Source of the DNA: Fidelibacterota bacterium
GTDB lineage: Bacteria > Fidelibacterota > Marinisomatia > Marinisomatales > JAHJCW01
Reading direction: 5' to 3'
DNA length: 64,000 nucleotides
Assembly (NCBI GenBank): GCA_042564205.1
Contig: JBHPLN010000001.1
Location: 13,626-77,625 of the forward strand
Part shown: piece by piece, positions 3,742 to 42,833 of the stretch
How positions within the stretch are numbered: position 1 is the first letter of the stretch
Layout of the letters: every line of letters starts with the position of its first letter
Position numbers and translations under genes: made by a program
Notes under the pieces: generated by a model
Seen by the model: only the letters and a program-made list of their open reading frames with translations
Told to the model about the DNA's origin: nothing
Database searches by the model: none

Positions 3742-4694
3742 TATCTGGATCCTCTGCGTTTAATGGTGGTATCAATCAAAACGGCAATGATTATCACAGC
3801 ACCAATAATGGTTTGTTGCAGAAAACTTGATACTCCTAAAAGATTTAGACCATTGCGCAGTACACCCATAATTAAAGCGCCAATTAAAGTCCCCACGATT
3901 CTTCCTTCGCCACCCATCAAACTAGTACCACCGATGACTGTTGCGGCAATGGCGTCCAATTCATACATCATCCCGGCAATCGGTTGGGCTGAATTCAGAC
4001 GCGCTGTCAGAATCACCGCTGCCAGACCACTTAGCATCCCACAAATGCCATATACGGCTGCTTTATACCGCGTAACGTTAATCCCTGAAAGTAGCGCTGC
4101 TTCTTCATTACCCCCGATTGCATATGTGTAGCAACCAAGCTTGGTGTGCGTTAATATGAAATGTGCGATTAGGTACACCAGAATCATTAAAATGACTGGA
4201 ACAGGTATGAACATAATTTCGCCCGTGGCAATTGAGCGGAAATTTAGATCAAAACCAGAGATGGGTCGCCCCTGTGTATACATCAAAGCCGCGCCGCGCG
4301 CGACACTCATCATACCCAAGGTGGCAATAAAAGGAGGCAATTTACCATAAGCGATTAAAGACCCATTGATGAGTCCGCATATAAGACCTACCCCCAATCC
4401 CAATATGATCGCTAAACTCATTGGTAAATCGGCCTCCAGCGCACTGGCCAGCACTACTCCTGAAAAAGCCACAATTGAACCAACCGACAAATCAATTCCA
4501 GCGGTAATTATCACAAAGGTAAGTCCAACTGCAATGATTGCGTTTATGGATGTTTGTTGAGCTATGTTAACCAGGTTTGGAACGGTTAAAAAATGCGGGG
4601 ATAGAACCCACATCACCAAGATCAGACCAATCAATCCAAACAACGTACCTAATTGACGGCCATAGCGGTGCATTATATCCTTAAGCCGCACCAT
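3741..4694 (-). CDS. Sugar ABC transporter permease (RbsC/AraH family)
   Basis: Polytopic membrane protein with GGIDLSVGS and IGG.SL.GG motifs typical of BPD_transp_2 sugar permeases. Translationally coupled to both neighbours. Confidence 0.9.
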   Translation of the reverse strand: MVRLKDIMHRYGRQLGTLFGLIGLILVMWVLSPHFLTVPNLVNIAQQTSINAIIAVGLTFVIITAGIDLSVGSIVAFSGVVLASALEADLPMSLAIILGLGVGLICGLINGSLIAYGKLPPFIATLGMMSVARGAALMYTQGRPISGFDLNFRSIATGEIMFIPVPVILMILVYLIAHFILTHTKLGCYTYAIGGNEEAALLSGINVTRYKAAVYGICGMLSGLAAVILTARLNSAQPIAGMMYELDAIAATVIGGTSLMGGEGRIVGTLIGALIMGVLRNGLNLLGVSSFLQQTIIGAVIIIAVLIDTTIKRRGSR

Positions 4695-19553: not shown

Positions 19554-19604
19554 ATTAAATCGGATAAAAAGGTCCTTTATATTGTTGATATTATTGTTTT
19601 TAAA
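19554..19604 (+). repeat. Conserved 51-bp upstream block, copy 1 (pairs with 20091-20141)
   Basis: 45 of 51 positions identical to 20091-20141 by hand alignment. Lies about 100 bp upstream of the first DUF4242-like gene. Contains AAAGG-T-CCTTT. Confidence 0.7.
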
Positions 19605-19703
19605 GTCGATTAAATTCATTAGAATCGGCCCTATATTTGTTAGCTAGTTTTTTTAGCAGGCAATCATTACTTAATAATAAAAATAACTAATGGAGATTAT
19701 CTT

Positions 19704-20090: not shown

Positions 20091-20141
20091 ATTAAATTGG
20101 ATAAGAAGGTCTTTTATATTATTGATTTTATTGTTTTTAGA
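20091..20141 (+). repeat. Conserved 51-bp upstream block, copy 2
   Basis: See 19554-19604. Lies about 80 bp upstream of the second DUF4242-like gene. Confidence 0.7.
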
Positions 20142-20220
20142 TGCATTGTTAATAATTATACTTCACATAATTATTAACAGCTATTTTAATTAGCAGGCCG
20201 TTAAAAGGAGAAGAAACAAG

Positions 20221-20840: not shown

Positions 20841-21055
20841 ATGTGGTATTATAATGCTATCTACTTCAATAATGTGATACTTTCCTATAAAAAATACCCC
20901 TATACCTTACACGCCTGATAAATTATAAATATGCGGTTTACTTAATTTACCTGCATTTATCTCTTTAGTTCCCACAAATTCATGCATTATTAACTCACTT
21001 TTCTCTTTTTGATTAATTAAAAAAATAGCTTGACTTTAATAAAAATATTAGTATT

Positions 21056-21089
21056 TTATTATATAAAGTATATATACTTTATATAATAA
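21056..21089. promoter_or_regulatory. 34-bp perfect palindrome abutting the start codon of the AbiEi-like gene
   Basis: TTATTATATAAAGTATATATACTTTATATAATAA. I checked all 17 base pairs by hand. It ends 4 nt before ATG 21094. TTGACT lies at 21031-21036 upstream. Confidence 0.55.
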
Positions 21090-21093
21090 CATT

Positions 21094-21978
21094 ATGAAAT
21101 ATTACCAAATACTTGAAAGAGTAGCAAAAAAAATCACTGAATATTTTAATTCAATCAAACCGGAAGTTTATACTATATCCGAATTAGGAAGAATATTTCG
21201 TGCACAAAGAAGGATCTGGGAATTACCATCAGGAATAACACGGAGGGATTTTATCGAATATATGTTATTACGGACTAACTTAGAGAATCACATTTTTAAA
21301 TTTCCGCATTTAGAGTACCAGCGGTTTACCTGGGGACCCGGATCCATATACAGCATTATACTCAGTTTGAAGAAAAACATTCATTTTTCTCATTTTACAG
21401 CAGCATATCTTCACAATTTAGTGGAAAAAATACCCCAAAGTATGTTCGTTACTATCGAACAGAGCCCAAAGAAAACCAATTACCATTTAGCTCAACTCAG
21501 CATTGATAATGCTATGTCAAAACCGCAGAGAATAACACGAAATTATGCCAATTATGGCAGACGCAATATATATCTGCTTAATGGGAAACATACTGAAAGC
21601 ACGGGTGTAATAAAAGCGAGAGCTGCTAGTGGTAAAATAATACCGGTTACGGACTTGGAGAGAACACTAATTGATATTACTGTTAGGCCTGAATACGCAG
21701 GTGGAGTTTTTGATGTATTAGAAGCATATAAACGCGCTGCGAAAAATGTCTCCTGTGAAAGGATGGTCCAATATCTAAACAAAATAAACTATTTATATCC
21801 CTACCACCAAAGTATTGGTTTTTATATGGAAACATCGAAAGCTTACACGTCAAGCCAGATAGAAATAATTAGAACAATCAACCGGGATTTTGATTTTTAT
21901 CTGACATATAATATTCCCAATATGGAGTATTCTGAAAGATGGAAAATGTTTTACCCAATCGAAATGACTTTTATCTAA
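21094..21978 (+). CDS. AbiEi-like (type IV TA antitoxin / wHTH regulator family) protein, orphan
   Basis: An N-terminal wHTH-like segment is followed by a C-terminal segment ..IPVTDLERTLIDITVRPEYAGGVFDVLEAYKRA.. matching the AbiEi C-terminal signature as I recall it. No nucleotidyltransferase (AbiEii) gene follows. No SD sequence. Confidence 0.45.
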   Translation: MKYYQILERVAKKITEYFNSIKPEVYTISELGRIFRAQRRIWELPSGITRRDFIEYMLLRTNLENHIFKFPHLEYQRFTWGPGSIYSIILSLKKNIHFSHFTAAYLHNLVEKIPQSMFVTIEQSPKKTNYHLAQLSIDNAMSKPQRITRNYANYGRRNIYLLNGKHTESTGVIKARAASGKIIPVTDLERTLIDITVRPEYAGGVFDVLEAYKRAAKNVSCERMVQYLNKINYLYPYHQSIGFYMETSKAYTSSQIEIIRTINRDFDFYLTYNIPNMEYSERWKMFYPIEMTFI

Positions 21979-26635: not shown

Positions 26636-26845
26636 TATACAATGAAGTTAAATAAAATAATTGTTATTTAACCTTCTAAATTGTCAGATAAATGTGTTAC
26701 TACTTATCCCACTTGTGAATCACTGTTTTCTACAATCAATTTATCTTCAGCAGTATTTCCACCTACTGTATTGGTAATTCCTTGAGCATTTATCAACGAC
26801 CAGCCCCCATTCCATTGTTTGGACCACTTTCTAAGTTCGTATTTC

Positions 26846-26930
26846 TGGTATAAGAATAGTGCCTTAAGGTGTCTCTAAAACTTTGGTACACTCAAATCAG
26901 GTCGTTTGTTTTGGGTAACGTTTTTGGGAC
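26846..26930 (+). repeat. Intergenic element E1 (family E1-E7)
   Basis: CTGGTATAAGAA..GGTGTCTCTAAAAC..TTTGGTACACTCAAATCAG..CGTTTGTTTTGGGTAAC-GTTTTTGGGAC. Collinear with E3, E4, E5 and E6. Confidence 0.85.
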
Positions 26931-26960
26931 TTTATTACTATACTATGATTAACACTGTAT

Positions 26961-29436: not shown

Positions 29437-29567
29437 TCCCAAAACCCTACGTTTTTGGCACAGTTTCACAAGATTTGGATTTTGATATACGTTTTTGATA
29501 TGGTTATTCTGATTTCAATCAGAAGAGGGCTTGGGATATGAAAGTGGCATATAATGCTATGCCATAT
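29437..29567 (+). repeat. Intergenic element E2 (degenerate core plus extended tail shared with E3)
   Basis: TCCCAAAACCCTACGTTTTTGGCACAG..ATTTGGATTTTGATATACGTTTTTGATATGG, then tail TTCTGATTTCAATCAGAAGAGGGCTTGGGATATGAAAGTGGCATATAATGCTATGCCAT. Confidence 0.5.
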
Positions 29568-30384: not shown

Positions 30385-30585
30385 ATCAAATCCCATTTTT
30401 TAACGGTTTCCTGTTCCTAATTGGGTATAAGAAAGGTGTAGAAAAGTGTCTCAAAAACCGCCGTTTTTGGTACTACCAAATTAGATCGTTTGTTTTGGGA
30501 CAAGTTTTTGGAATGATTTTTTCGATTTCAATCAATTAGAAGGGGGAGTTGAGGATGCAATTAAATTAACATGGTAAATGCCATC
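30385..30585 (+). repeat. Intergenic element E3 (full core plus tail)
   Basis: ATCAAATCCCATTTTTTAACGGTTTCCTGTTCCTAATTGGGTATAAGAAAGGTGTAGAAAAGTGTCTCAAAAACCGCCGTTTTTGGTACTACCAAATTAGATCGTTTGTTTTGGGACAAGTTTTTGGAA. Tail TTTCGATTTCAATCAATTAGAAGGGGGAGTTGAGGATG..ATGGTAAATGCCAT. Confidence 0.85.
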
Positions 30586-31865: not shown

Positions 31866-31934
31866 TTAGTATTATTAACTATAACTTATAGACACACGTC
31901 CAATTAAAATATTGTTTTATAATACAGATTATTA

Positions 31935-32058
31935 ATCAATCCCATTTTTTCAACGGCTTCCTGTTCCTAATTGGGTATAAGAAAGGTGTAGAAAAGTGTC
32001 TCTAAAACCCTTGGTACACTCAAATTAGTCCGTTTGTTTTGGGACGCGTTTTTGGGAC
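31935..32058 (+). repeat. Intergenic element E4
   Basis: Near-identical to the E3 core apart from a 6-nt deletion: ATCAATCCCATTTTTTCAACGGCTTCCTGTTCCTAATTGGGTATAAGAAAGGTGTAGAAAAGTGTCTCTAAAACCCTTGGTACACTCAAATTAGTCCGTTTGTTTTGGGACGCGTTTTTGGGAC. Confidence 0.9.
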
Positions 32059-32100
32059 TCAAAGGCTATACTAATTGTATTTTAATCGCCAAGCATCTAT

Positions 32101-33321
32101 TCATTCGCTCACCGCTAATTCATACTCGTTAATAAAAGCATTCATGATTTCCAAAGATAAAACCTCGCCCATTGCGCCATTCGTCATAATGATAATTGCT
32201 GAGCCCTTCTCAGGCCAACCAATAAGCCAGCAATTAAGTCCAGGAAGATTGCTTCCAGGATGAGCAAATATTATTTCATTACCTAATCCAATAAGGAAGA
32301 CTCCAAGCCCTTCAGATAGTGGGATACCAAACATCCTTGGGTCAAGATCAAATTCTTTATCCAAAATATGTTTTGTCGTTTCCTGTGAAATAATTTTCTC
32401 CGATTTTCCTTTATATGAGAGCATAATTTCACTCGTGAATTTTGCCAGATCAATGGGAGTAGTAGTTAATCCTCCATGAGCTAGGGCAGTTAAATGCATA
32501 GACGGATTCAGTGAGTTACCTTCAGCATCATGTGGCATTGCCTCATGTTTTTTATTTTCAGAGTCTAAGGGGTATATAAAAGTACTTTTGTTCATTTCCA
32601 GTGGATCAAATATTACTTCCTTTGCTAGCTCTTGGAATGTTTTCCCTGAAATATCTTCAAGCAGTAGTTGGATAACGTTAAATGCCACGTTGGAATACTG
32701 CCACAACGAGCCGGGCTCTACATCGGGGATCGCAGGTTTATTCAATGCGGGTGATTCACCATTCAAGACATTCAAAAGTGTTGGGTATCCAACGCTCTCG
32801 TCATGACCATAATTTGTTGTTGGTAAACCGGCTTTATGAGTTAATAATCTTCGTAAAGTTACTTTTTCATTTTCTGTAAACTCATTATCAGGTATTTGCC
32901 AAGTTTTCAAATAGTCATTTACATTACTATCTAACTCAATAAAACCTTTCTCTGCATAATGAAGAGCCAATACTGCTGTTATAAACTTACTAGTTGACGC
33001 TGCTTCGAAAATTGTTTCAGAGGTAACAGGGATTCCGGTGTTTACATCCAATGCACCATAAACTTTACTCCACTCAATCTGGTAATTATTAATAACTGCA
33101 ACACTCACACCAGGAGTATTGTAGTACTTCATTCTTTCAGCTAATGTTTGTGTCTGTGTTTGTAACGTGTCAGCCTTTCGAAACATCGCAGCCATTGATT
33201 CAAACTCGATCAGGCTTTTTTCGATATTTGCTATTCTTTGTTCTACTAGTGCCTGATTTTCTTGTTGTGAACAAGAAATCAAGATTAGAAGTGCGGATGT
33301 TGTTACAATTAATTTTTGCAT
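32101..33321 (-). CDS. Serine hydrolase of the beta-lactamase/transpeptidase-like family (class C/esterase type), lipoprotein
   Basis: SxxK motif (ASTSKF), a YSN-like motif (QYSNVAF) and a C-terminal HPG motif. Lipobox ILISCS. RBS AAGGGGGA. Confidence 0.85.
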   Translation of the reverse strand: MQKLIVTTSALLILISCSQQENQALVEQRIANIEKSLIEFESMAAMFRKADTLQTQTQTLAERMKYYNTPGVSVAVINNYQIEWSKVYGALDVNTGIPVTSETIFEAASTSKFITAVLALHYAEKGFIELDSNVNDYLKTWQIPDNEFTENEKVTLRRLLTHKAGLPTTNYGHDESVGYPTLLNVLNGESPALNKPAIPDVEPGSLWQYSNVAFNVIQLLLEDISGKTFQELAKEVIFDPLEMNKSTFIYPLDSENKKHEAMPHDAEGNSLNPSMHLTALAHGGLTTTPIDLAKFTSEIMLSYKGKSEKIISQETTKHILDKEFDLDPRMFGIPLSEGLGVFLIGLGNEIIFAHPGSNLPGLNCWLIGWPEKGSAIIIMTNGAMGEVLSLEIMNAFINEYELAVSE

Positions 33322-33586
33322 GTTTTCCCCCTTAGTAAATTATGTTTATAATTTTGCACTATACATTTTATCGCAATTACTATACCAACGCCCAGTGAGT
33401 TTTTTTGATTACAACACATCCTGATATTAATATTAACTTTATGTTCTATTCTTCAATTATAAGAATGGAGCATATTCATATCATATTGATATAATATGCA
33501 TATCATTAATACCCTACAAATATTAGAATAGAGTGAACTTCAATATGACCGGCTATCGTTTGGACAACTTTTTAAGTAAGTATATT

Positions 33587-33676
33587 CTGGTTCTAATTGG
33601 GTATAAGAACGTTGTTAGGGGTGTCTCTAAAAACACCGTTTTGGGGACACTCTAATTCGCCTGTTTGTTTTGGGAC
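33587..33676 (+). repeat. Intergenic element E5 (lacks the last GTTTTTGGGA motif)
   Basis: CTGGTTCTAATTGGGTATAAGAACGTTGTTAGGGGTGTCTCTAAAAACACCGTTTTGGGGACACTCTAATTCGCCTGTTTGTTTTGGGAC. An extra CGTTTGGAC motif lies at 33557-33565. Confidence 0.8.
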
Positions 33677-33814
33677 TTGATTGCTACACTGGCAATAATT
33701 CTTTGGGTAAAATAATAGTTGGTAATTGTGTAGATTGAATTTTGATAACAAAATATATCAATATAATATGACCATCAACAATTCTATATAAATGTTAGTT
33801 AAGTGGAGCGACAA

Positions 33815-34204
33815 ATGAGAAAACAATATCATTTCAGACCATCAGAGAAGGGTATCCTCATTTGGGATGTTCAACGATTGGTGAAACTAACTAAGAACCT
33901 TCCTACCAAGAAAGTGGAACTGGAAGCCATTCGTGAATTGGACGAACCATTCTGGTTTGGAAACGAAAAATCCGTTCCTACTTGCCGAGTAATAGCAGAA
34001 CACGTAAAACTAATCGAAGAATCTGATTTGATGCATCCAGTTATTCTATCGCGCGATGGACGGATAATGGATGGTATGCACCGTGTTGTAAAAGCATTGT
34101 TGAAAGGTCATAAACAGATAAAGGCTATTCAATTTACAAAAGATCCTAAACCTGATTACATAGACGTTGACTCTGCTGATTTACCCTACGATTCACCCGC
34201 CTAA
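33815..34204 (+). CDS. Small ParB-like nuclease/sulfiredoxin-fold domain protein
   Basis: PVILSRDGRIMDGMHRVVKAL matches the ParB N-terminal DG..R box. Start taken at ATG 33815 (GGAG 7 nt upstream). The track start is GTG 33803. Confidence 0.45.
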   Translation: MRKQYHFRPSEKGILIWDVQRLVKLTKNLPTKKVELEAIRELDEPFWFGNEKSVPTCRVIAEHVKLIEESDLMHPVILSRDGRIMDGMHRVVKALLKGHKQIKAIQFTKDPKPDYIDVDSADLPYDSPA

Positions 34205-36171: not shown

Positions 36172-36400
36172 TTTAATTTGTTCCTTATGCGATAGCTCAC
36201 AATAATTAAAGAGATAATATGAATATTATTAGAATTGATAATAAACCGTAACGTCGAGTAATAATCATGAAACCTCCTTTAATTTGCCTGCTGAATAAGT
36301 AATTTAAAAAATATCGCTTTAAATATAATGAGAATCATTATATTTAAAAACAGTAAAATGAAATTCTACAGATTGTGTGGTTAGTAGATACTATAAACCA

Positions 36401-36527
36401 ATCATGTTTTTTCACCGGTTTTCTTGCTTCAATTTGGGTATAAGAATAGTAATTCAAGGAGTCTCTAAAACCACCGTTTTTGGTACACTCAATTTAGGCC
36501 GGTTGTTTTGGGATACGTTTTTGGGAG
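36401..36527 (+). repeat. Intergenic element E6
   Basis: ATCATGTTTTTTCACCGGTTTTCTTGCTTCAATTTGGGTATAAGAATAGTAATTCAAGGAGTCTCTAAAACCACCGTTTTTGGTACACTCAATTTAGGCCGGTTGTTTTGGGATACGTTTTTGGGAG. Confidence 0.9.
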
Positions 36528-36609
36528 AAATGAGCTGTAGTGATCTATGAATAGTTCTGTCGGTTTGATAATAATTTTCAGTCATCATTTTTTCCCTCTT
36601 TAGAATTAG

Positions 36610-37327: not shown

Positions 37328-37358
37328 TCCCAAACCCCGTCGTTTTTGGTGCTAAAAT
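37328..37358 (+). repeat. Element fragment E7 (inverted plus direct motif pair)
   Basis: GTCCCAAACCCCGTCGTTTTTGGTGCTAAAAT has the same architecture as the E2 core (TCCCAAAACCCTACGTTTTTGGCAC) and is truncated after the first motif. Confidence 0.45.
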
Positions 37359-37363
37359 ATAGG

Positions 37364-37450
37364 AACAGAGCAAAAAAGGGCACAGCGCAAAAAAAGTGTG
37401 CTCCAACTGTGCTACACTTTTGTCCACTACTGACCACTTCTGTCACTTTA
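37364..37450 (+). repeat. Direct repeat A (pairs with 42589-42684)
   Basis: The first 51 nt (AACAGAGCAAAAAAGGGCACAGCGCAAAAAAAGTGTGCTCCAACTGTGCTA) match B at 46/51 positions by hand alignment. A looser match follows (..CCACTTCTGTCACTTTA vs ..CCATTTCTGTCCATTTA). Confidence 0.75.
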
Positions 37451-40700: not shown

Positions 40701-41112
40701 CATTGTAATAGGTATTTCAGCCAGTGCTTTTAATACTACTAAACAAACTAGCTTTAGAGCGGGTTGTAATGATTTTCTTACTAAACCCATCCATATTGAA
40801 AAATTATTTGAGTGTTTAAAGCAGTATTTAAAGCTCAAATGGGTCTATGAGGAATCAGCCATGTCTGGTTCGGGGGAAAAGGAAGACTCTGAAACATTAC
40901 TGATGGTTATTCCTCCTAAAGAAGACTTGGAAACCTTACTGAGATATAGTGAAATCAATCATATTACTGGTATGCATCGATCACTGGAAAATATAAAAAA
41001 AACGGACGAACAGTACATTCCTTTTGTTACTAAAATTGAAGATCTCGTAGACAACTTACAATTCAAACGTATCATTAAAACAATTCAATCATATCTTGAA
41101 AAAAGGATCTGA
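37750..41112 (+). CDS. Cytoplasmic hybrid sensor histidine kinase: unknown N-terminal domain, coiled coil, PAS repeats, HisKA, HATPase_c, receiver, C-terminal extension
   Basis: No TM segment. Repeated PAS blocks end in ..ISEHKR.., ..ITERKRAEE.., ..ITDRIRAEEE. H-box SHELRTPLN, N/G boxes, then a receiver (LLLVDDN..DIILMDLIMP..KP). Confidence 0.9.
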   Translation: MKNSDETQILGALALSFGQACINSNFLFGEETDFLQQIKADKWYPLEKVFNIFNIIEEKYSNPVPIYEQIGIEMMTLWYSQGPGKQFIKKGVDFLHFQTSSEGFYSVIKGKPNQIGDFSLLNLDREKGTAIVKSTTPFNRDLERGVLIGGMGITKDLLYISVDNSKDENIFHIQFRDSQHVQIDSKNSLKLPTNMDLYTLYWKNKMLKNKFKRHSSFWNSTNKTSTLAFEKLRKQDHELRKRAEDLSRINARLAQEINERKRIENALRNSEALYQSLVDNLPQFIFRKDINGKYTFLSKNFGLNKGKPTETYIGKTDYDIYPRKLAKKFQESDQQIIKTRKILNSVDIQKSPDGLNIYTQVIKIPIYDAKNRLVGIQGIFWDISEHKRIEEALRVSEAELRALFAGMPDVVIMLDDTGRYLKIAPTSPELLFQPEDKLIGKSLHDIFPKEQADLFLKSIHQSLETQELVNLEYSLDIEETELWFRGCISPMSKNSVVFVARDITERKRAEETLRKSEEKHRIIFENANEIIIIAQDGRVAFANPALEKILGYPIDDVISRPFTDFIHPDDRGLVFERYKKRMAGEDVETGYQFRLVTVSGEERWVMINSSVLEWEGNASTLNFLTDITDRIRAEEEVIKAKEQAESANQAKSIFLANMSHELRTPLNSILGYTQILKRDKNLKKQQKNGIDTIHQSSEHLLNLINELLDLSRIEAQKMELELSDVYFPGFLKKITEIAHFQAQQKGVSFDSEIATDLPAGVRIDEKRVHQVLLNLINNAIKFAGSGSVTFRANINSLSVNENKQTTVHIHFEVEDTGVGISSDEIDKIFLPFHQVHKTKLTTEGTGLGLPISSNLLQIMDSKLNVKSTEGEGATFWFDLEVPLIESITNGEEFSTVEQSRNIIGFKGDKRKLLLVDDNKTNRAVLRDMLLPLGFEIAIAKDGREALDRAAEFHPDIILMDLIMPVMDGIEATKRIRKNPALKDIIVIGISASAFNTTKQTSFRAGCNDFLTKPIHIEKLFECLKQYLKLKWVYEESAMSGSGEKEDSETLLMVIPPKEDLETLLRYSEINHITGMHRSLENIKKTDEQYIPFVTKIEDLVDNLQFKRIIKTIQSYLEKRI

Positions 41113-42257
41113 TGATGTCGAAATCATTAAAAAATAAGACAATCTTAGCTGTTGACGATAAGCTTGAGAATTTAAAGGTCTTAATAGCTTATTTGGAAAG
41201 CAGTGGTTTTGAGATCATGGTCGCACAAAGCGGAGAAGAGGCTTTCCAACATATTGAGCACGTTATCCCTGATATAATTCTATTAGATATACTTATGCCT
41301 GGTATTGATGGTTTTGAAATCTGTCGCCGTTTGAAGACAAACGATATCACCAAGGAAATTCCAGTAATTTTTATGACAGCTCTGATAGATACAGCTGATA
41401 AAGTAAAAGGTTTTGAAGTCGGTGCTGTTGATTATCTTACTAAGCCTCTGCAACATGAGGAGGTTTTAGCTCGTGTGAATGCTCATATGACCATTCGGGA
41501 ATTACAACAACAACTCCAGGAAAGAAACGTCTTATTGCAGCATAAAAACACCCAGCTAATGGAAGTAAATGCAACTAAAAATAAATTCTTCTCGATTATC
41601 GCACATGACCTAAAGAATCCTCTTAATACATTACTGACATATAGTATGACTCTAGTAGAAAATTTTGAAAAACTCGATACAGAAAAGATAATAAAAGGGA
41701 TTGAAGCACTTAATAGAAGCGCAACCCGTGCTTATGATCTTTTAATCGATTTACTCAACTGGGCTCGTTCACACTCCGGAAAGATGGAATATAAACTTGA
41801 AGAAATAGACCTCGGCCAAATTGCTAAAGAAAATATTGAGTTACTTCTTGATCGGGCGACTGAAAAAGGTATCCGAATATCCTCAGAGATAAACGAAGGT
41901 TTACTAGCATATTCAGATAAAAATATGGTTTCTACTGTGCTGCGAAATTTATTAACCAACGCCGTAAAGTTCACATCAAAAAATGGAAACGTTACGTTAA
42001 GCAGTGAAGTAGGAAAGAATAGTCTGACAATAACAGTCCGTGATACAGGAATTGGTATTACTGAAGAGAACATAAATAAATTGTTCAGACTTGATACATT
42101 TTATCGCACATTAGGATCAGATAATGAGAAAGGCACCGGGCTGGGACTTCTTTTATGTAAAGAGTTTATCAACACACTGAATGGTGAAATTTGGGTAGAA
42201 AGTGAGATAGGAAAAGGAAGCTGTTTTATTTTCACGTTACCTACGCAAGCCACATAA
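41112..42257 (+). CDS. Response-regulator receiver fused to histidine kinase core (REC-HisKA-HATPase_c)
   Basis: The start overlaps the upstream stop (TGATG). Receiver motifs (ILAVDD, ILLDILMPG, LTKP), H-box AHDLKNPLN, G boxes DTGIGI and GTGLGL. Confidence 0.9.
   Translation: MMSKSLKNKTILAVDDKLENLKVLIAYLESSGFEIMVAQSGEEAFQHIEHVIPDIILLDILMPGIDGFEICRRLKTNDITKEIPVIFMTALIDTADKVKGFEVGAVDYLTKPLQHEEVLARVNAHMTIRELQQQLQERNVLLQHKNTQLMEVNATKNKFFSIIAHDLKNPLNTLLTYSMTLVENFEKLDTEKIIKGIEALNRSATRAYDLLIDLLNWARSHSGKMEYKLEEIDLGQIAKENIELLLDRATEKGIRISSEINEGLLAYSDKNMVSTVLRNLLTNAVKFTSKNGNVTLSSEVGKNSLTITVRDTGIGITEENINKLFRLDTFYRTLGSDNEKGTGLGLLLCKEFINTLNGEIWVESEIGKGSCFIFTLPTQAT
41124..41212 (+). repeat. 89-bp segment duplicated at 42316-42404
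   Basis: Identical except for one G/T difference (GCTGTTGACG vs GCTTTTGACG). Covers codons 5-34 of the REC-HK gene. Confidence 0.95.
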
Positions 42258-42303: not shown

Positions 42304-42423
42304 ATGAATTCAGAGTCATTAAAAAATAAGACAATCTTAGCTTTTGACGATAAGCTTGAGAATTTAAAGGTCTTAATAGCTTATTTGGAAAGCAGTGGTT
42401 TTGAATGGTCTCAAAGCTTCTAG
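42304..42423 (+). pseudogene. Duplicated 5' fragment of the REC-HK gene (39-codon chimeric ORF)
   Basis: MNSESLKNKTILAFDDKLENLKVLIAYLESSGFEWSQSF*. Residues 5-34 duplicate 41124-41212, and the homology stops abruptly at 42404. Confidence 0.8.
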
Positions 42424-42509
42424 GTCACAGCACAGTAAAAACTACGGAGAAATACTATGCGGATTATAAAGATGACAACTATCGATCAGCTACTAAACTA
42501 CTTGAATAA
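42405..42509 (+). pseudogene. Tyrosine recombinase (phage integrase family) C-terminal remnant
   Basis: ..VSKLLGHSTVKTTEKYYADYKDD..* is the conserved LLGHS..-TT..Y tail carrying the catalytic Tyr. Only about 34 codons remain, preceded in frame by a stop, and its own terminator follows. Confidence 0.65.
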
Positions 42510-42588: not shown

Positions 42589-42684
42589 AACAGAGCCAAA
42601 AAGAACAGAGCGCAAAAAAAGTGTGCTACAACTGTGCTATTTTTTTTCCATTTATGGGTATTTGTGGCCATTTCTGTCCATTTA
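42589..42684 (+). repeat. Direct repeat B (pairs with 37364-37450)
   Basis: AACAGAGCCAAAAAGAACAGAGCGCAAAAAAAGTGTGCTACAACTGTGCTA.. See repeat A. Lies between the integrase-remnant terminator and the tRNA-Val 3' end. Confidence 0.75.
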
Positions 42685-42759
42685 CAAAAAGTCTAAATAT
42701 GATACCCAAAAATACAAATCCCCGACGACAAATACTATTTACCGATGAGGATTATTCTG

Positions 42760-42833
42760 TGGGCGATACCCGGCTTGAACGGGTGGCCTCTGCCGTGTGA
42801 AGACAGCGCTCTGACCAGCTGAGCTAATCGCCC
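42760..42833 (-). tRNA. tRNA-Val (anticodon CAC)
   Basis: Hand-folded cloverleaf. Acceptor GGGCGAT/ATCGCCC, D stem GCTC/GAGC, anticodon stem CTGTC/GGCAG with loop TTCACAC, T stem ACCCG/CGGGT with loop TTCAAGC, discriminator A. 74 nt, CCA not encoded. Confidence 0.9.

Follow-up and report, generated by a model that had tools for sequence, protein, structure and literature searches.

A modular repeat that may act as an att-type site bounding gene cassettes beside tRNA-Val in a Fidelibacterota bacterium

The window analysed here is a 64,000-nucleotide stretch of a contig from a Fidelibacterota bacterium (GenBank assembly GCA_042564205.1, contig JBHPLN010000001.1, positions 13,626 to 77,625 of the forward strand). 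Between 10 and 42.7 kb it contains a low-GC stretch (32-38% GC; 40-47% outside) that ends at the anchor of this island, a tRNA-Val(cac) gene (42759-42833, - strand; 60.9 bits in an Rfam E-value run). Within the island lies an array of intergenic repeats, designated E elements, that part six blocks of functionally unrelated accessory genes encoded on both strands. The blocks comprise an O-methyltransferase with a kelch protein and a PNPOx-like protein; an M23 peptidase; a beta-helix protein; a beta-lactamase-family hydrolase; a 133-aa protein with a STAS-like protein and a PAS-PP2C protein; and a YhhN protein. The orientation of the elements was independent of that of the genes, and their distance to gene starts was variable.

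The interval flagged by the original prediction, a note made from the DNA letters of the window (36401-36527), is part of copy E6 of a modular repeat of ~150 nt. Repeat finding and profile searches, with direct reading in the case of E7, identified five full copies (E1, E3, E4, E5 and E6) and two partial copies (E2 and E7), all seven of which are intergenic, lie on the + strand and fall within 26.8-37.4 kb. Repeat finding, motif searches and profile searches detected no E copy in the remaining ~53 kb of the window. Copy E6 (36395-36542, + strand; nhmmer E=3.6e-35 against the family profile) contains a left arm, a core and a right arm. The other full copies are E1 (26797-26940, +), E3 (30386-30516, +; supported by alignment and a profile match, and followed by a TTCGATTTCAATCAATTAGAAGGGGGAG box), E4 (31933-32074, +) and E5 (33551-33691, +), which is complete apart from the terminal motif copy M3. 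Copy E2 (29438-29503, +; nhmmer E=1.1e-5, profile positions 88-154) is diverged, consists of core and right arm with a hardly recognisable left arm and precedes a TTCTGATTTCAAT box, and E7 (37328-37352, +) is a core alone (GTCCCAAACC-CCGTC-GTTTTTGGTGC). Pairwise identity between copies ranged from 62 to 91%, and neighbouring copies are separated by 0.95-4.5 kb of DNA that contains ordinary genes.

Alignment resolved the element into three parts. The left arm (~85 nt, with three indel variants) starts near ACCAATCCCA and closes with GGTATAAGAA-N13; the core is an 11-13-bp motif arranged as an inverted pair (M' GTGTCTCTAAAAC and M1 GTTTTTGGTACAC) around a 4-5-nt spacer; and the right arm (~40 nt) contains a ACTCAAATTAG box followed by two direct copies of the motif, M2 and M3. 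In E6 the left arm as defined by the alignment occupies 36395-36458 (+), with its GGTATAAGAA box at 36437-36446. The E6 core (36459-36488, +) comprises M' GAGTCTCTAAAAC (36459-36471), the spacer CACC (36472-36475) and M1 GTTTTTGGTACAC (36476-36488), and its right arm (36489-36527, +) comprises a ACTCAATTTAG box, M2 GTTTTGGGATAC (36505-36516) and M3 GTTTTTGGGAG (36517-36527). A fifth conserved copy of the motif, M0 (GTTTGGACCAC), sits in two of the three left-arm variants and reads GTTTGGAC at 26817-26824 in E1 and at 33558-33565 in E5. The two ends of the element (ACCAATCCCA… and …GTTTTTGGGAC) are unrelated to each other. While the core arms M' and M1 stay conserved among the aligned copies, the spacer between them differs (C-N-N-C-N). 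Such a layout, an inverted pair of putative binding elements around a short spacer as the candidate exchange point, is a feature of attachment (att) sites of the tyrosine-recombinase type. In some copies a TTCTGATTTCAAT(C) box was observed after M3 (window positions 29503-29530 and 30520-30555; positions ~588-610 of the related contig L039), at times trailed by AGAAGGGGGAG; the TTCTGATTTCAAT box recurs within the left arm and may thus be a site for an accessory protein.

Much of the original description withstood this comparison. All of the strings that it quoted are present, and the arms of E6, the CACC spacer, M2 and M3 could be located; E2 and E7, described there as starting with an inverted motif, also carry the core, identified by profile in E2 and read directly in E7. 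The motif GTTTTTGGKAC was enriched over shuffled background: allowing for one mismatch at most it occurs 12 times in the window against 2.7 expected, a count that none of 100 shuffles reached, and 9 of the 12 matches fall inside E elements. The deletions reported in E1 and E4 are real and take out the spacer together with the beginning of the second arm, but they measure 7 and 6 nt rather than 4-6 nt. The GTTTGGAC motif is likewise found upstream at both E1 and E5, but the latter begins one base away from the position originally given (33558, not 33557). An inverted copy of the motif reported next to tRNA-Val (42700-42712) differs from it at three positions and was not recovered at one mismatch or fewer, and this similarity is probably due to chance. 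Because the orthologous copy of E4 in the related contig L045 has an intact core, the 6-nt deletion of E4 in the window is best read as secondary, and because E1, E4, E5 and E7 all carry deletions, the array in the window is probably in part a fossil. Immediately left of E1, positions 26700-26815 (- strand) read as the C-terminal end of an open reading frame (…NGGWSLINAQGITNTVGGNTAEDKLIVENSDSQVG*) with no upstream part, which may be a truncated cassette gene.

Relatives of the element were sought by one pattern scan each of genome and metagenome collections. True relatives were limited to two contigs of a Candidatus Neomarinimicrobiota metagenome-assembled genome and ~10 metagenome contigs (contigs of relatives are referred to below by L numbers), the remaining matches being chance; plasmid, phage and viral-contig collections gave no true match. 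The closest named homologues of the lgt gene (61-65% identical) are annotated as Marinimicrobia, Neomarinimicrobiota or Fidelibacterota, with named matches from the Chlorobi group (Prosthecochloris, Chlorobaculum, Chlorobium) close behind at 58-64%. Same-strand arrays with a spacing of 1-2 kb and unrelated genes in between recur in these contigs (four copies in L003, three in L037, two or three in L036, two in L017, and two in L030/L045/L046), and inverted half copies were found only twice. Elements lie near tRNA or transfer-messenger RNA (tmRNA) genes in the window, L005, L024 and L058; in L036 there is only a degenerate tRNA-Val-like fragment, which ARAGORN did not call. Walking outwards from lgt, the contigs of the closest relatives (L041 and L055) stop at tRNA-Val or at a duplicated kinase fragment, and the more distant relatives L042-L044 are without the island. 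In L005 a phosphotransferase-like gene of 54.8% GC (883-1767; label assigned by reading its sequence rather than by profile) starts precisely where an element on the reverse strand (764-903) has its left end. The neighbours of this gene are core genes of 40-43% GC (hisF, der and ribonucleotide reductase), with tRNA-Met downstream, and it seems to be a lone foreign cassette that is not part of an array.

Evidence of exchange comes from the beta-lactamase-family cassette, whose body lies between E4 and E5 (32075-33550, - strand; gene at 32101-33321). This cassette is shared, together with both flanking elements, with L030/L045/L046 at ~82% identity over 1.7 kb. The genes next to it are different on either side, being the beta-helix and 133-aa genes in the window and an arginase gene and a 184-aa gene in the relatives. 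On the E5 side, identity to L045 was 0.93 from the upstream region through the left arm of E5 (itself 93% identical to the copy that follows the cassette in L045/L030) to M'; further on it dropped, to 0.8 for the core, 0.63-0.7 for M1-M2 and 0.3 past M2. The value in M1-M2 is the level seen between unrelated copies of the element. On the E4 side, identity was 0.33-0.4 left of GGTATAAGAA and 0.6-0.8 across the element and onwards into the cassette. Homologues of the beta-lactamase-family protein at 69% identity or less (L047-L054) were found in ordinary contexts with no elements.

Partial copies break at the same internal place. The five left-half copies stop at profile positions 108-112, the end of M1, and the two right-half copies start at profile positions 101-103, the start of M1. 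Three of the left halves carry, after M1, a different conserved right arm in place of M2-M3, designated R2 (…AAAATCAACACGTCCCAAAACACCCCGATTTAACC…TCTGT…AACCGTCT…AAAATCAAAGTC; L024 565-660, L003 ~1860-1930 on the - strand, and L045 ~480-600). In L024 the R2 arm adjoins the tmRNA gene at a distance of ~280 nt from tRNA-Lys, a position suggestive of a second docking site.

The tRNA-proximal end of the array in the window is occupied by a second repeat family, D6. Copy D6a (37364-37450, +), which is abutted by E7, contains two copies of AACAGAGC, one of GTGTGCTNCAACTGTGCTA and TGTCCAC-type boxes; copy D6b (42589-42690, +) lies ~70 nt from the 3' end of tRNA-Val. Between the two copies lie two sensor-kinase genes and a C-terminal remnant of 34 codons read from the sequence (42405-42509, +; …LLGHSTVKTTEKYY…), which we take to be that of a tyrosine recombinase, the motif having been assigned from knowledge of the family with no profile match. 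The remnant is joined to a 94% duplicate (42304-42404) of the first 100 nt (41112-41212) of a gene for a 381-aa response-regulator kinase, and in L055 (2-142; same species, 99% identical) the kinase-remnant fusion is in frame owing to a 4-nt difference. A protein search with the padded 34-aa remnant as query yielded no integrase candidates. Further D6 copies were located in L030 (6-102), L036 (383-435), L045 (724-783 and 4536-4591), L052 (14618-14670, 16976-17031 and 18583-18602) and L058 (4316-4375), and no true match was found in viral contigs, plasmids or phages. Only in L036, L045 and L052 does D6 follow a partial tRNA-Val that stops at the anticodon stem; L052 also has D6 in a same-strand array of its own between genes. 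In its arrangement D6 looks like the arm-site cluster of a separate integrase that targets tRNA-Val, and the two copies in the window look like the bounds of an insertion carrying the integrase remnant.

A cassette-free arrangement was found in L058, a contig whose lgt is 70% identical to that of the window and which encodes tRNA-Val(cac) at 4454-4528. Here a D6-like arm lies ~70 nt from the 3' end of tRNA-Val, and immediately adjoining it are the core and right arm of an element (TTTGCATCAAAAC-CCGCT-GTCTTTGGTCCTC-TCAAATTAGTCCGTTT-ATTTTTGGAGAT-GTTTATGATAC). This site matches the family profile (E=7e-8) with the same polarity as in the window, and it is accompanied by neither a left arm nor cassettes. 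The L058 site thus looks like an empty docking site, to which the E7 core plus D6a would be the counterpart in the window, with its right arm deleted. Based on these two sites, the right half of the element would be native to the region downstream of tRNA-Val; the left arm, judging from the same comparison, comes with the cassettes.

We favour, with modest confidence, a model in which mobile cassettes are bounded by modular, double-stranded att-type sites of ~150 bp, E6 being one of them. The model builds on the anatomy of the element, the arrays, the occurrence of one cassette in two contexts, breaks that fall at the core and a relative with a cassette-free site, all of which were observed directly, and it agrees with the original suggestion that repeat clusters of this kind resemble integrase sites. 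Strand exchange would presumably proceed through a circular intermediate and be carried out by a tyrosine recombinase acting in trans. Crossover would occur in or next to the M'/spacer/M1 core, such that a cassette would consist of [M1-right arm-gene(s)-left arm-M'] and the excised circle would carry one complete site. This circle could then recombine with a resident site, the first chromosomal docking site being the core, right arm and D6 downstream of tRNA-Val, and repeated insertions would generate a same-strand array. The motif copies M0, M2 and M3 and the boxes GGTATAAGAA and TTCTGATTTCAAT may bind additional recombinase or an accessory protein, in the manner of attI, lambda attP or FRT.

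Several points weigh against the att-site model. No intact recombinase was found among the proteins encoded between 20 and 43 kb of the window, which were scanned with Pfam, or on the related contigs; the 34-codon remnant beside D6b is the only trace of such an enzyme nearby, and it may belong to the separate D6 system. Comparison across lineages was possible for one cassette only, the left boundary of this cassette can be placed only between M' and M3, and the family-wide conservation of the right arm (60-70%) blurs that boundary. Most of the related contigs are short. The genes within the cassettes face both ways, and some cassettes contain three genes, unlike classical integron cassettes. 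Finally, the search pattern fixed GGTATAAGAA and GTCTC.AAAA, and the invariance of these two strings is therefore partly a matter of ascertainment; both were largely kept also in the copies found by profile alone.

Among the alternatives, a non-autonomous selfish repeat, akin to miniature inverted-repeat transposable elements (MITEs), repetitive extragenic palindromic (REP) sequences or Correia elements and accumulated in a permissive, AT-rich island, is unlikely but fares best; on this view it would coincide with cassette borders simply through surviving in intergenic DNA. Such a repeat would account for a short, intergenic, multi-copy and lineage-restricted element, for its modular build with alternative left-arm types and right arms, for the decay of several copies and for the lack of a dedicated enzyme. 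It does not account for the unrelated ends of the element, which has no terminal inverted repeats, for the near-total co-orientation of copies within loci, or for their confinement to one part of the window, and the clustered, co-oriented copies do not place E in a MITE- or REP-type family. Moreover, partial copies of a selfish repeat would not be expected to break at one internal point rather than at the ends, nor would half an element be expected to be kept at tRNA-Val in a genome whose lgt is 70% identical.

A cluster of binding sites with a role outside recombination, for a regulator, a nucleoid or insulator protein or a parS-like array that organises or silences the island, is improbable. 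The five copies of the motif in each element, including the palindromic pair, and the low GC content of the island are what such a cluster would look like. It leaves unexplained the break in homology at the core, the half elements and the cassette that has moved with its flanking copies, and the elements are poor candidates for regulatory sites in that their orientation is unlinked to genes and their distance to gene starts varies. A scan for sigma-70-like promoters and terminators gave counts equal to those of shuffles, with no site recurring in the copies.

We regard as still less probable an atypical attC site of a true integron, or of a cluster of attC sites lacking an integron integrase (CALIN), recombined as a single strand by an IntI-type integrase encoded elsewhere. 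The co-oriented array between promoter-independent accessory genes recalls such a system, as do arms that end in …AAAAC and begin with GTTTT…, reminiscent of the AAC/GTT triplets, and the complementarity of M' to M2. However, the arms read GTCTC(T/A)AAAAC and GTTTT(T)GGKAC, and in no copy do the outer 7-bp boxes of attC, R'' (RYYYAAC) and R' (GTTRRRY), occur in register. An attC site is an imperfect palindrome whose bottom strand folds into a long hairpin with extrahelical bases. The element is not an extended imperfect palindrome: DNA folds of four whole copies on both strands were comparable to shuffles (z -1.8 to +1.3), and the ~85-nt left arm has no complementary partner with which to pair. 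The imperfect M'/M1 hairpin of the original prediction is present as a sequence, but folding of the whole element is no better than that of shuffled DNA. The Pfam scan of the 20-43 kb proteins detected no IntI or other recombinase domain, and the cassettes measure 0.8-2.7 kb with genes in both directions. By the features tested, the element probably behaves like an integron or att system while standing outside the attC family.

The chance that E is a structured RNA gene or cis element (a small RNA, leader or terminator), as the original prediction proposed in the alternative, is very small. Both M'/M1 and M'/M2 tolerate G-U pairs on the + strand, and the long-range M'/M2 helix is paired in 90.6% of cells and the M'/M1 hairpin in 78.7%; column shuffles equalled these values in 500 of 500 and 490 of 500 cases, respectively. 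The RNAalifold consensus energies of the + and - strands were -0.89 and -0.88 kcal/mol, respectively; neither fold contained a compensatory pair, and no pair showed real covariation. Since shuffles pair as well and there is no covariation, the complementarity between M', M1 and M2 stems from conserved copies of one motif and not from selection for pairing. E1 and E4 lose one arm of the hairpin, and the elements are uncoupled in orientation from neighbouring genes. Rfam returned no match in the elements when the whole window was searched at the gathering threshold, and at E<=1 the tRNA was the sole match between 26.5 and 43 kb. The gathering-threshold run missed this tRNA despite its score of 60.9 bits against a threshold of 29, apparently a filter effect, and its lack of matches should therefore be taken with care when considered by itself. 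A structured RNA family was rejected on these grounds.

The remaining candidates can be dismissed briefly. The likeness to type II CRISPR (clustered regularly interspaced short palindromic repeats) sequences is superficial, given a kilobase-scale spacing of 0.95-4.5 kb filled with ordinary genes, an identity of 62-91%, no match to CRISPR direct-repeat (CRISPR-DR) or tracrRNA families in Rfam at E<=1 and no Cas domain in the Pfam scan of the 20-43 kb proteins, a nearby 1120-aa open reading frame being a PAS/HisKA/HATPase/receiver kinase rather than Cas9. CRISPR arrays, by comparison, have near-identical repeats of ~23-50 bp at regular intervals of 25-70 bp, usually accompanied by cas genes and, in type II, by a tracrRNA. 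The suggested kinship with Tn7-like transposon ends, which enclose tnsA/B/C-type genes, did not hold, as all copies have one orientation with no paired inverted ends, and neither transposase nor AAA+ regulator genes were found in the Pfam scan of the 20-43 kb proteins. An origin of the left arm from a tRNA was likewise dropped, the 9-nt match to a D-loop region having no stem complementarity.

Three further features of the island were recorded. The 133-aa cassette protein (33803-34204) has no Pfam match, and by eye shows a DGxHR-type motif (…IMDGMHRVVKAL…) that recalls ParB-like nuclease domains. Besides E and D6, a third non-coding stretch is conserved (20093-20209 and 19556-19605, ~75-84% identical), immediately upstream of two paralogous SCO4226-like genes; in L037 (1156-1273) this stretch precedes an unrelated alpha/beta hydrolase gene and adjoins a half element, such that it may be a promoter or leader module common to these genes. 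An inverted repeat of 31 nt whose halves directly adjoin (21042-21103; 81% complementary) runs into the start of an AbiEi-like gene (21094-21978).

To our knowledge, integrons are the only well-characterised system that stockpiles and shuffles recombinase-less single genes at a chromosomal platform. The E array resembles them in that co-oriented accessory genes without a recombinase are each bounded by a copy of the site, a constant position on the chromosome serves as the anchor of the array, and one cassette occurs in different arrays. The integron site attI1 consists of a simple site plus the direct repeats DR1 and DR2, and by analogy the E element may be compared to it, with an inverted pair and two more direct copies of the motif. 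The E site differs from integron sites in that it is not a folded single-strand hairpin, it is accompanied by no RYYYAAC/GTTRRRY boxes, IntI or Pc-type promoter layout, its genes point both ways, its cassettes are larger and its anchor lies downstream of a tRNA gene.

Other recombination systems share parts of this design. The Flp recognition target (FRT) of the yeast 2-micron plasmid, one of several tyrosine-recombinase sites that possess an additional symmetry element, has two inverted binding elements around a short variable spacer with extra direct copies alongside; it bears no sequence relationship to the E element. FRT serves inversion or amplification in a plasmid and not cassette capture. 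Staphylococcal cassette chromosome (SCC) elements at orfX are serial modules, some of them recombinase-less, that accumulate at one site and are separated by direct repeats of the attachment sequence. In contrast to SCC, where the repeats are ~15-27 bp and the enzymes are large serine recombinases (ccr), the E site is ~150 bp with five motif copies, and the sole trace of an enzyme is of the tyrosine type. Lambda-type att sites, cis-mobilizable elements with integrative and conjugative elements (CIME-ICE) and tycheposons offer parallels at the level of the island, with a tRNA-linked variable region, serial insertions at one site, a fragmented integrase, direct repeats between modules and complex sites in which a core and arms carry repeated motifs. 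Both CIME-ICE accretion and the tycheposon islands of Prochlorococcus (bioRxiv 10.1101/2020.12.28.424599) are examples of integrase-less elements accreting in tandem at tRNA genes. The E modules differ in that they are single genes or small sets of 0.8-2.7 kb rather than whole elements with integration and replication genes, and in that the E unit is not a partial tRNA. No tRNA-like sequence was found at the E copies, and modules flanked by a partial target tRNA would apply only to the neighbouring D6 repeat in relatives.

More tentatively, it is possible that Marinimicrobia-type bacteria own a gene-capture platform that is integron-like in function yet independent, with its recombinase encoded elsewhere in the genome. 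Docking sites would lie downstream of tRNA-Val and possibly, with an alternative right arm, at tRNA-Lys/tmRNA and tRNA-Met elsewhere, and recombinase-less cassettes would be inserted, excised and shuffled by way of the ~150-bp double-stranded multi-motif site. Should the element instead prove to be an inert repeat, it would still be a useful lineage marker, of minor interest. If the platform exists, cassette capture evolved more than once, and an abundant uncultured marine phylum would hold a second such system with a different site chemistry. The element would then serve as a sequence tag with which to recover the accessory gene pool from metagenomes, where arrays break assemblies, and it would provide a concrete mechanism for the hypervariable islands of streamlined ocean bacteria.

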